This document shows, in pieces, positions 1 to 3,000 of a stretch of 6,706 bases of DNA. The position numbers are program-made. This DNA is from Candidatus Aenigmatarchaeota archaeon (GTDB taxonomy: Archaea; Aenigmatarchaeota; Aenigmatarchaeia; Aenigmatarchaeales; JACQIB01). Position 1 is the first letter of the stretch, and each line of letters starts with the position of its first letter. Location of the stretch: assembly GCA_046760225.1 (NCBI GenBank), contig JBHIDR010000035.1, positions 1-6,706 on the forward strand, in the 5' to 3' direction.

Positions 1-3000
1 AACCGTGCATGGGATGAATATCTCGACGAAAAACGGGGGAAGGCCTTTGTTAAAAGGGAAAAGATAGGAACATTGGAAGCAATCGAAACAATACTTAACT
101 CTGGCGGCATACCTGTTATGGCCCATCCAATCAAGCTGAATGACCAGGAGCTAATACCCTATTTCGTCAAGAAAGGCATGATTGGAATTGAAGTTTATTA
201 CCCTGAGCATGGCGAAGAAACAGAGCAGCACTATTTGGAAATGTCAAGGAAATATGATTTGGTTGCCACGGGAGGCAGTGATTCGCATGGACCCGGTTCT
301 GTCAAGCCCCTTGACGTAGGATGCGCAAATGTTCCTTTAAGCGTATATGAAGACCTCAAGAAAATCAAGAAGAATTTATAAGGGCTGGAAACTATTTCTA
401 AGGCATGGAGTATAAGTTTTTCGAGCACACAGCTGACACCATCTTTGAAGGATATGGCAAGAGCTATGAGGAGGCTTTCGCCTCGGCAGCACTTGCAATG
501 CAGGAGGTCATGACTGATACATCCAGGGTGGAGGCAAAACAAGAGGAGAAGATAGAAGCAGAAGCCAGGGACATGAAGGCGCTGCTGTACGACTTTCTTG
601 AGAAGTTCCTGATACTCAAGGATGCAAAGAACCTTGTTTTCTCAAAGTTTGAGGTCAAGAGGATAGATAAGACTGACAGGGGATACAGGCTCGAAGCAAA
701 GGCATGGGGAGAGGAATTCAACCCGGAGAAGCACGAGGACAAGAGCCATGTCAAGGCTGTTACATACCATGAAATGGAAATCGGTGAGAAGGAAGGAAAG
801 AAATATGTAAGGGTGCTGGTTGACATCTAGATATCTACTGAAATCTTTTCAACAAGAACAATTATTTTCTTGCCCTTTCTGGGACCCTCGACCTTAATGA
901 GACCGAATCTTTCAAATATCTTCAGGTCCTCGTATACATTCTTTATGTCCCTCTTGACTGCCCTTGCAAGTCCTGTTATTGAATCGAAACTGCTGTATTT
1001 TATTGTCTCCAAAAGGATTAGGCGCTCTGGTGTTAGCAGTTTCCTCAGTTCGCTTATCTGAACCTTGAAAATCTCTTCCTCAGACAGGAAGAGCTCTCCT
1101 GATTCTTCATATTCTCTGTATGCCCTGTTCAGCCTGAACCATTCTTCTGTATCCTGCTTCTTTTTCCTTTTCAAAATGGCTATTTTCTTAACCAGTTCCT
1201 CTGGCCTGAGTTTGTATTTTATCCTTATCTCCATACAAACAGATGGGTCCTGAGAACTATAAAAATCTTTGGTATGCCATACCAAAAATTGATATATAAA
1301 TACGTAAACAAGGATAGAAAGGTGATATAATGCCTGAAATAAGTCTCAAAAAAATAGATGAGCTGCGCTGGGAGATACCCATAGGAACGATTCCAAATAT
1401 GCGCGTTCCTGTAAGGGTCTTTGCCAGTGAGCCCATGCTCGAGAAGATGAAGCGTGACAGGACGCTCACACAAGGAGCTGGCGTTGCAACACTGCCAGGG
1501 ATTTATAAGCATGCCATTGTTCTGCCGGATGGGCACGAGGGATATTCTGTAAATGATTTTTGCAGAACCTTAAATGGGTTCCCAATCGGCGGGGTGGCTG
1601 CACTTGATTTCAAGGAAGGCGGAATAAGCCCTGGCGGAATAGGATTGACTAAATAGTGTTAGCTTTTAGTCCCTAAAATGATATCAATTGTGGCGTGCGG
1701 CTTGTTACCACTAATCTCACGATTAAGGATGTAATGCCGAAAATAAAGGAGCTGTTGGAGGCGTTGTTCAGGAACATTCCCTCGGGCTTGGGCTCCAAGG
1801 GAAAAATAAAGGTATCAACTGATGTCCTGAACACTGTCCTGGAAAAAGGAGCTGCCTGGGCTGTTGAAGAAGGCTATGGATGGAAAAAGGACCTTGAGCA
1901 CCTTGAATCGAACGGCAGGATTGATGCTGATGCTTCGCTTGTGAGCAGCAGGGCAAAGGACAGGGGCAAGCCACAGCTCGGTAGCCTGGGTTCAGGTAAC
2001 CATTTCATTGAAGTGGAAAAGGTTGACAAGATATTCAGTCCTGAAGTTGCAAAGGCATTCGGCATCCATGATACTGATCAAATAGTTGTGCTTATACACA
2101 CAGGCTCAAGGGGGTTTGGGCACCAGGTATGCAGCGATTACCTGAGGGAAATGGAAAGAAAGTTTGCTGACATTATCGCAAAGCTGCCTGATCGTGAGCT
2201 TGTATATGCTCCTGCCGGGACACAGATGGCAAAGGACTATCTGCTTGCAATGGGATGCGCTGCTAATTTTGCCTGGACCAACAGGCAGATGATAGTGCAC
2301 TGGGCAAGGCAAAGCTTTGAAAGGATATTCAAGAAGAGTGCAGAGGACATGGAAATGAACATCATCTATGATGTTGCCCACAACATCTGCAAGATAGAGG
2401 AGCATGAAGTCAATGGAAAGAAAGCAAAGGTGTACATGCACAGGAAAGGGGGAACAAGGGCATTCCCTCCAGGACATCCTGAAATACCTTCTGAATACCG
2501 TTCAGTTGGCCAGCCTGTGTTTATTCCTGGAAGCATGGGAACAGCTTCCTATGTGCTTCATGGAGTAGACGAAGGGAAGGTTACGTTCTTCTCAACTGCA
2601 CATGGTGCAGGAAGGGAGATGAGCAGGCATGCTGCGCTCAGGCAGTGGAGAGGGGAAAGGGTCAAGAAAGAGCTTGAGGCAAGGAACATCTTTGTGCGCA
2701 GCGCAAGCTGGAAGGGGATTGCAGAAGAGGCTCCTGGTGCATACAAGGACATAGATGAGGTAGCAAGAGTGAGTGACGAGACAGGCATCGCAAAGCGCGT
2801 CTCAAGGCTTGTGCCTGTGGGTGTTGTGAAGGGATAATCAGTTTGCAATGAACTCGAATATTCTTTCAAAAGAACGTGGCGTATGATCACACAGAGCATG
2901 ATAGAGCAAGGAGTCAAATTTCCTTGCATCATCCTCATTGAGGTAGTTTGTCTCGAACCAGAGCTGCGGTCTCATGTCAGTGGTCTTTCTCAGGGCCTCG

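Follow-up and report, generated by a model that had tools for sequence, protein, structure and literature searches.

A bulge-helix-bulge (BHB) intron in an archaeal coding sequence is known from the cbf5 pre-mRNA of Crenarchaeota, the removal of which has been demonstrated experimentally (Watanabe 2002; Yoshinari 2006; Yokobori 2009, PMC2738675; PMC7714728). Indeed, in the relevant passages of PMC7714728, cbf5 of Crenarchaeota is the only archaeal coding sequence reported to carry such an intron. The same source describes a BHB-motif intron in the mRNA of Haloferax volcanii HVO_1309, where it is located in the 5' untranslated region (UTR). Archaeal tRNA introns possess either canonical or relaxed motifs, the latter being described for lineages with a splicing endonuclease (EndA) of wider specificity (Marck and Grosjean 2003; Kaneta 2018, PMC5829648). 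In eukaryotes, HAC1/XBP1 mRNA is cut by IRE1 and ligated by Trl1 or RTCB (PMC4090602). A literature search for introns in rtcB, the gene of the RNA-splicing ligase, retrieved no paper.

The stretch of DNA analysed (the window) comprised positions 1 to 6706 of contig JBHIDR010000035.1 (C35) of a DPANN archaeon, window and contig coordinates being identical. It contained an rtcB gene (1330-2837, + strand) with two short inserts within the coding region (Table 1). When left unspliced, this locus consists of two ORFs, namely 1330-1656 (108 aa) and 1695-2837 (380 aa), which cover positions 3-47 and 52-426 of the Pfam RtcB profile, respectively. An initial annotation had proposed a 30-nt in-frame insert and a 32-nt frame-breaking insert, and both positions and lengths agreed with the sequence and its translation. 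Similarly, excision of both inserts from the coding sequence gave the expected RtcB protein of 481 aa, in which the two conserved motifs were rejoined at the junctions HEGY/GFPIGG and GIGY/DINCG. The first of these, PDGHEGYGFPIGG, is presumably a metal site, as in the P. horikoshii structures. The gene of archease, a cofactor of RtcB, precedes rtcB by 500 nt on the same strand. A search of this genome for rtcB gave a single locus; as the assembly is 83% complete, a second, uninterrupted copy may exist in the missing part.

Table 1. Features of the rtcB locus and of the neighbouring archease gene in the window, with the evidence for each
Feature	Position	Strand	Evidence
Archease gene (cofactor of RtcB)	405..830	+	PF01951, E 7.2e-47, profile 1-136 of 136
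rtcB exon 1, Met1 to first base of the HEGY Tyr codon	1330..1543	+	ORF list, spliced translation; P. horikoshii RtcB alignment from residue 3
Predicted intron 1, 30 nt, in frame, stop-free	1544..1573	+	BHB motif; 10-aa gap versus PDB RtcB; covarying inserts at the same place in five loci
rtcB exon 2, 72 nt: GFPIGGVAALDFKEGGISPGGIG plus part of a Tyr codon	1574..1645	+	Spliced translation, alignment to relatives
Predicted intron 2, 32 nt, frame-breaking, TAG at 1654-1656	1646..1677	+	BHB motif; four distinct relatives' inserts aligned, compensatory changes
rtcB exon 3, ending at TAA stop 2835-2837	1678..2837	+	Pfam RtcB E 2.3e-145 for 1695-2834; P. horikoshii RtcB 100-481, E 1e-149

Pfam PF01139 (RtcB) matched exons 1 and 2 including intron 1 with an E-value of 5e-09, besides the far stronger match of exon 3, and the corresponding values against P. 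horikoshii RtcB (PDB 1uc2/4dwq) were 1.8e-30 and 1e-149. The stretches NH, HTGSRG, AHN, and HGAG, which presumably contain functional residues of RtcB, were all conserved in the latter alignment, placing the protein within the family over its full length. In line with the initial annotation, the spliced product aligned without gaps across both junctions with the uninterrupted 480-aa rtcB product of the same genus; the 46 residues compared across the junctions were identical except for one V/L exchange, and exon 3 displayed 77% identity to this gene over residues 95-480. If retained, intron 1 would encode the peptide SVNDFCRTLN. The earlier statement that these ten residues are absent from two relatives was borne out too, as they faced a gap of exactly 10 aa in P. 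horikoshii RtcB and a gap in those relatives, among the loci compared, that lack an insert there. Removal of the inserts thus restored a 481-aa RtcB, ungapped relative to both the same-genus gene and the PDB protein.

Each insert could be folded into a BHB motif with two opposed 3-nt bulges, a 4-bp central helix (H), and symmetric predicted cuts, and the helix sizes given in the initial annotation were reproduced throughout. For intron 1, H is formed by 1538-1541 and 1568-1571 (4/4 pairs), with bulges at 1542-1544 (5') and 1572-1574 (3'), an inner helix (h') of 9 bp (1545-1553/1559-1567), and a loop at 1554-1558. For intron 2, H is formed by 1640-1643 and 1672-1675 (4/4 pairs), with bulges at 1644-1646 and 1676-1678 and an inner helix of 7 bp (1647-1653/1665-1671). 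The outer exon-exon helix (h) is weak, amounting to 2 bp and 1 bp, respectively; because of this, both predicted motifs fit the relaxed form rather than the canonical, strict hBHBh' form. The predicted cuts, two bases into each bulge, fall at 1543/1544, 1573/1574, 1645/1646, and 1677/1678. In both cases, the register so defined was the best among 16 and restored the conserved peptide (EGYGF for intron 1 and IGYDI for intron 2), just three and two registers out of 16 being able to do so. Minimum-energy folds contained H and the inner hairpin, the 3' bulge of intron 1 measuring 6 nt instead of 3 nt when flanks of 15-30 nt were included; with flanks of 10 nt, the minimum-energy fold of intron 1 differed and lacked H.

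The frequency of such motifs by chance was assessed over the whole genome for pairs of sites at lengths of 24-40 nt. A fully paired H with an inner helix of at least 7 bp was present in 750/28,838,290 site pairs (2.6e-5), and one with an inner helix of at least 9 bp in 105/22,048,494 (4.8e-6). Within the whole window, no Rfam family (group I and II introns, riboswitches, and others) matched at its gathering score, and a search for further copies of either intron in the genome returned only chance matches of at most 18 nt.

Relatives of this archaeon provided a further line of evidence. Short inserts, 32 in number and 13-165 nt in length, were found at the same two spots in 27 other DPANN loci, so that 34 short inserts in 28 loci, window included, were examined. 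The frame was broken by 22 of these (length not a multiple of three). The best of 16 motif registers restored the conserved peptide in 30/34 inserts versus 5.19 expected, a contrast that overstates independence since the loci are kin; the four inserts that failed this strict test belonged to loci L028, L033, L034, and L054. At the place of intron 1 (six sequences), both sides were changed in 9/13 pairs and 94.9% of the cells remained paired, with 19-56% paired in slid controls and with none of 500 shuffles reaching the covariation score. Similarly, at the place of intron 2 (five sequences), both sides were changed in 5/14 pairs, 97.1% of the cells were paired, and 0/500 shuffles reached the score; at both sites kinship overstates the independence of the changes. 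In particular, helix H covaried between exon and intron (TAGG/CCTA versus TCGG/CCGA, and GGCT/GGCC versus GGTT/GACC), indicating that the structure is kept via compensatory changes at both introns. At HxGYGF, at least five different insertion points were counted within a stretch of 14 nt, and four within a stretch of the same length at GIGYDIN. Long in-frame inserts of roughly 1.3-1.5 kb were also seen in relatives, between DIN and C in two loci (L038 and L039) and near GYGF in another (L045). Taken together, the short inserts of the relatives much strengthen the reading of both sites as probable BHB introns, and the earlier proposal of two such introns in rtcB gained support from the motif scores, the restored frame, and these compensatory changes alike.

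The genome also encodes candidate splicing machinery. Contig C2 has two neighbouring ORFs of the EndA family, each with N and C domains, in agreement with the endonuclease genes already indicated in the initial annotation. Furthermore, ARAGORN marked 13/21 tRNA genes as intron-bearing; therefore, the splicing machinery is in heavy use. A tie between an interrupted rtcB and a two-subunit endonuclease was considered and turned out to be unsupported, as intron-less genomes showed the same mix of PF01974 matches as the 21 genomes with an interrupted rtcB (one match in 13, none in one, two in six, and three in one). A genome scan for other mRNA introns, requiring a fully paired H and an inner helix of at least 5 bp at lengths of 20-200 nt, produced 48,174 hits, with 2,873 candidates that would break the frame and join ORFs, a number too large to be of use. 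A tightened scan (inner helix of at least 7 bp, length of at most 80 nt) left 83 candidates, including rtcB intron 2. Pfam searches with the 60 half-proteins of 30 of the other 82 candidates (those with the longest flanking frames) revealed no split families. Candidate L076, considered as a split gene, was rejected, as both of its halves contain Ig-like domains and appear to belong to two genes lying next to each other. The cbf5 gene of this genome was uninterrupted within its TruB_N domain, both matched stretches lying in a single 254-aa frame.

These data make it very probable that rtcB is a three-exon gene, the pre-mRNA of which carries two BHB introns that are cut by the splicing endonuclease, the exons being joined by RtcB already present. 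Both the splicing itself and the role of RtcB in sealing the exons are inferred from the sequences compared here. In each of the two BHB motifs that the pre-mRNA would form, the end of the upstream exon and the intron's 3' end build the 4-bp H, next to which lie two 3-nt bulges and a hairpin within the intron. The splicing endonuclease, probably the product of the two genes on contig C2, would cut after the second base in each bulge, generating ends with a 2',3'-cyclic phosphate and a 5'-OH, which is the established chemistry of this enzyme family. The RtcB present in the cell, aided by the archease encoded upstream, would then ligate the three exons, and only after this joining could translation give the 481-aa enzyme in which PDGHEGYGFPIGG and GIGYDINCG are unbroken. 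Because the rtcB message would need splicing that is sealed by RtcB, the cell most likely needs pre-existing RtcB for making new RtcB. The feedback loop put forward in the initial annotation follows logically from this arrangement; any control circuit is putative.

One could imagine that solely intron 2 is spliced and that 1544-1573 is kept, to be translated as a 10-residue insertion in an RtcB of 491 aa. Such a product has an open frame (492 codons including the stop), and intron 1 is unique in that respect, the remaining 11 of the 12 in-frame inserts among the 34 all containing a stop. Nevertheless, this is quite improbable, as intron 1 has the best motif of the contig, being its sole match with H 4/4 and a 9-bp inner helix, and as five other loci carry inserts of 29-32 nt at this very place that covary with it, four of them frame-breaking and one (L012) also with a stop in the reading frame. 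Moreover, retention would split the invariant GY/GFPIGG at a point where the solved RtcB structure has a gap. That the annotated gene consists of two ORFs would suit a decaying pseudogene, or two separate polypeptides of 108 and 380 aa, with hairpins that arose by chance or are leftovers. Both are very unlikely, given a reading frame that is intact over 481 codons apart from the inserts, the above-mentioned conservation of exon 3, and the 27 other loci that keep inserts at the same spots between conserved exons. In addition, the 380-aa ORF starts at P. horikoshii RtcB residue 100 and is therefore without the DINC motif, and no second rtcB was found in this genome (83% complete) despite its many intron-bearing tRNA genes.

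Finally, the inserts might reflect an assembly error, or ribosomes might skip them by programmed translational bypass of the type known from phage T4 gene 60. Superficially, an insert such as intron 2, a short untranslated gap with a hairpin and a stop codon near its start, is reminiscent of bypass elements, but a reading of the sequence revealed no matching take-off and landing codons giving the conserved Tyr at either insert, and the success of bulge geometry alone in predicting the peptide-restoring junction in 30 of the 34 inserts is not foreseen by a bypass model. An assembly error is opposed by the DNA data: the runs matching 1330-2837 are four DNA runs of one study, with no RNA run among them, and their contigs contained both inserts unchanged, with no indel or joint. 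No intron-less form of the same strain occurred in the contigs of these four runs, and a 194-nt contig from a diverged relative was intron-less at both sites. Bypass and assembly error alike are thus hardly credible. Under the preferred explanation of two spliced BHB introns, these elements most likely remain in rtcB because they are tolerated, and their inheritance is patchy. A more far-reaching idea, which is tentative and rather unlikely, is that the introns are mobile mini-introns, for which both insertion clusters would serve as homing-like hot spots at the same motifs as the long intein-like inserts. They would spread between DPANN lineages by recombination via the conserved sequences on either side, or else reverse-splice into exons capable of forming H. 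As the message of the ligase has to be sealed by the ligase itself, rtcB expression would then work as a self-sustaining switch, signalling how much ligase is to spare in cells with heavily interrupted tRNA genes.

If spliced as predicted, DPANN rtcB would represent a second and widespread case of a BHB intron in an archaeal coding sequence, and tRNA-type introns down to 13 nt could occur within coding sequences. The interrupted gene would encode the very enzyme that completes such splicing, and a daughter cell could then read the gene only if it received RtcB protein from its mother cell. With regard to annotation, such genes currently appear as a pair of fragments or contain a spurious 10-residue insertion that goes unnoticed. 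In addition, the substrate rules of DPANN splicing endonucleases could readily be tested on the many variants found in nature, in which exon and intron covary.

Compared with the described systems, the predicted splicing of rtcB resembles that of the eukaryotic HAC1/XBP1 messages in that non-spliceosomal mRNA splicing of a short, frame-changing intron is sealed by a tRNA ligase, being RtcB in animals. There, however, the nuclease is IRE1 instead of the tRNA endonuclease and recognises stem-loops instead of BHB motifs, and the system is described as regulatory and stress-induced, with a spliced mRNA that does not encode the ligase. P. horikoshii PH1602 (rtcB) presumably contains an intein. Inteins of rtcB, too, are selfish elements that interrupt these conserved motifs of the active site, and the long intein-like inserts of the relatives are presumably removed at the protein level, whereas inserts of 30 and 32 nt are far too short for this. 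With archaeal tRNA introns, the rtcB introns share the two 3-nt bulges, the 4-bp helix, the size range, and probably the enzymes; they differ by their mRNA host and in that codons limit the exon strand of H, its covariation with the intron being achieved by synonymous changes. The mRNA of HVO_1309 is a substrate of the archaeal splicing endonuclease, as is predicted for rtcB, but its intron lies in an untranslated leader, where no frame is broken, and those of rtcB lie in the coding sequence. The cbf5 gene is alike in having a short tRNA-type intron in a protein-coding sequence, with patchy gain and loss among relatives, removal by endonuclease and ligase being demonstrated for cbf5 and predicted for rtcB. 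In contrast to cbf5, the host gene here encodes the ligase itself, the lineage is DPANN, one gene has two introns, and the insertion points are concentrated in two short stretches where the motifs are conserved best.

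Two short inserts interrupt rtcB, the only rtcB locus retrieved by a match search of the genome (851,505 bases, 83 contigs, rated 83% complete; the window spans bases 1-6706 of contig C35), and their removal yields a 481-amino acid protein with the motifs HEGYGFPIGG and GIGYDINCG. The first insert (30 nt) codes for SVNDFCRTLN and, in the DNA reading, sits between LPDGHEGY and GFPIGGVA. The second (32 nt) contains a TAG and follows SPGGIG, with DINCGVR on its 3' side in a different frame. An uninterrupted rtcB (480 amino acids) is present in a genome of the same genus (G001), to which the spliced product is identical in 45 of the 46 residues compared over both junctions. 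Alignment of Pyrococcus horikoshii RtcB (1uc2, 4dwq, and others) with exons 1 and 2 shows a 10-residue gap precisely at the intron 1 peptide. Exon 3 aligns with residues 100-481 of that protein; because this alignment begins at residue 100, the 380-amino acid ORF alone would be devoid of the DINC motif. The inserts are real at the DNA level, as contigs from four runs of one study of hydrothermal-vent metagenomes cover both, with no indels and no joint there. A 194-nt contig of a diverged relative from the same runs carried no intron at either site. A genome search found no further copies of the two introns elsewhere, and an Rfam search of the window matched 0 families.

Features of the rtcB region (contig C35)
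Feature	Position	Strand	Evidence or remark
Archease gene	405-830	+	Pfam, E 7.2e-47
Short gene	between archease gene and rtcB ORFs	opposite	
First rtcB ORF	1330-1656	+	RtcB family profile positions 3-47
Intron 1	1544-1573	+	30 nt
Helix H of intron 1	1538-1541/1568-1571		
Intron 2	1646-1677	+	32 nt
Helix H of intron 2	1640-1643/1672-1675		
Second rtcB ORF	1695-2837	+	RtcB family profile positions 52-426
Rpb4-like subunit, DUF655, rRNA adenine dimethylase, methyltransferase DNA-binding domain, and DUF763 genes	3' of rtcB		Pfam

In a canonical bulge-helix-bulge motif, the 5' strand consists of the outer helix, the 4-nt central helix (H), a 3-nt bulge, and the inner helix, and the 3' strand of the inner helix, H, a 3-nt bulge, and the outer helix. 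Both introns fit this motif, with an inner helix of 9 bp and two outer pairs for intron 1 and an inner helix of 7 bp and one outer pair for intron 2; as their outer helices are weak, both motifs are of the relaxed type. The cuts were placed after the second bulge base, a register which we take to hold here as for the 37/38 tRNA intron; three registers restore the peptide for intron 1 and two for intron 2. Minimum-energy folds of intron 2 contain H and the hairpin. Those of intron 1 with flanks of 15-30 nt do so too, but with a 3' bulge of 6 nt, and with 10-nt flanks a different structure without H is obtained. Across the whole genome (lengths 24-40), a complete H (4/4) combined with at least 7 bp of inner helix occurred in 750 of 28,838,290 site pairs and with at least 9 bp in 105 of 22,048,494, intron 1 being the sole match at 9 bp within C35.

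Comparison with relatives extended the set to 34 inserts of 13-165 nt in 28 loci, the window included, six of which, among them the window, are interrupted at both the HxGYGF and the GIGYDIN motif. The lengths of 22 inserts are not a multiple of three, and 11 of the 12 in-frame inserts contain a stop codon, intron 1 of the window being the sole exception. Each insert length allows 16 registers; when motif score was the sole ranking criterion, the best register restored the conserved peptide for 30 of the 34 inserts, against 5.19 expected (Poisson-binomial tail 9e-23, overstated since the sequences are kin). The misses were L028, L033, and L034, from one genus with a 4-nt 5' bulge, and L054. 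In addition, unguided RNAalifold of the inserts at the exact places of introns 1 and 2 predicted H, bulge, and inner helix. At the first site, 94.9% of the cells are paired, with both-sided changes in 9 of 13 pairs, and at the second 97.1%, with such changes in 5 of 14; none of 500 shuffles reached the covariation score at either site, and slid partners at the first were 19-56% paired. In helix H, synonymous exon bases covary with intron bases. The shortest mini-introns measure 13, 16, 17, and 19 nt and occur in pairs within the genes of L047 (G132:C80), L046 (G080:C8), and L048 (G139:C1); their inner helices are down to 1-4 pairs, and the 5' bulge is almost fused with the loop. A far longer insert (165 nt, locus 534-698) with several stops, a complete H (4/4), and an inner helix of 8 bp lies at the DINC spot of L051 (G224:C80:600-1450). 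Further breaks elsewhere in rtcB are possible in L037 (G033:C35:2100-2900), where bases that adjoin each other match query residues 142 and 176, and in L149, where residues 60-92 are absent between two frames.

Within the order, rtcB was matched in 36 of 42 genomes, short inserts at these spots being present in eight (G000, G005, G006, G008, G016, G021, G023, and G024). Within the class, it was matched in 331 of 371 genomes; 16 loci fetched for signs of a break from the 150 match rows listed out of 446, which give no unbiased frequency, comprised 13 with short inserts, two stopping at a contig end, and one with a long in-frame insert. An unselected sample of 80 loci, chosen on C-terminal patterns only, contained short inserts in eight (one a duplicate of G302), titled Woesearchaeota, uncultured archaeon, and, once, Methanosarcinales; none occurred in rows of this sample titled Methanobacteriaceae, Nitrososphaeria, or Caldisphaera.

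Endonuclease cutting followed by RtcB/archease joining is the best-supported reading. The endonuclease would cut at both motifs, after which pre-existing RtcB, with archease, would join the three exons; a dependence of rtcB on its own product follows if RtcB is the sole enzyme able to join these ends. Contig C2 carries two adjacent ORFs of the splicing endonuclease family (frames of 166 and 203 amino acids, N and C domains in each). A single PF01974 match was found in 13 of 21 genomes with an interrupted rtcB, indicating that a two-gene endonuclease is not required across the class. ARAGORN retrieved just 21 tRNA genes, 13 marked as intron-containing; several of these introns lie at odd positions, and they reach 693 nt in size. 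It is probable that introns interrupt much of the tRNA set and that some of its genes escaped detection. A strict genome scan for frame-breaking introns gave 83 candidates, including rtcB intron 2; among the other 82, 30 were compared with Pfam, and none of these is a split family. A motif-like 32-nt candidate joins frames of 428 and 521 amino acids, both with Ig-like domains (L076, G000:C25:3718-6599); these are most likely two neighbouring surface-protein genes, a frameshift or intron being possible.

Elements at conserved sites, either selfish or neutral, would fit the data at least as well as regulation, since the spread is patchy (in family f3, two of 19 genomes with a match), the insertion points are several (0, 6, 7, 9, and 13 nt past the His codon; 1, 7, 12, and 14 nt past SPGG), and long intein-like inserts occupy the same motifs. 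Two genomes of the order, G003 and G004, have in-frame inserts of about 1.5 kb that separate DIN from C (L038, G003:C25:2800-4800; L039, G004:C5:42600-44600), and another long in-frame insert lies near GYGF (L045, G160:C2:268600-270700). These three inserts, roughly 1.3-1.5 kb long and in single open frames of 971-1010 amino acids, occupy the two motifs that also harbour mini-introns and look like putative inteins. Among the matches listed, more are suggested in G082, G086, G237, G240, G172, and G173. Several assemblies also break exactly at or beside these spots (G035:C7 and C97, G027:C27 and C11, G236:C25, G085:C19), the contig ends overlapping by 9-16 codons or stopping at the Cys of DINC, which may reflect populations mixed for insert presence, or chance. 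Loss through a spliced copy would fit the precise absence of both introns from G001.

Searches of a limited full-text collection of papers found no report of an rtcB intron, and the available excerpts of PMC4090602, PMC5829648, and a 2026 Asgard tRNA preprint mention none. The cbf5 gene of the present genome is without interruption within its TruB_N part. In the excerpted text of PMC7714728, cbf5 is stated as the only coding-sequence case, to which that paper adds one in a 5' UTR.
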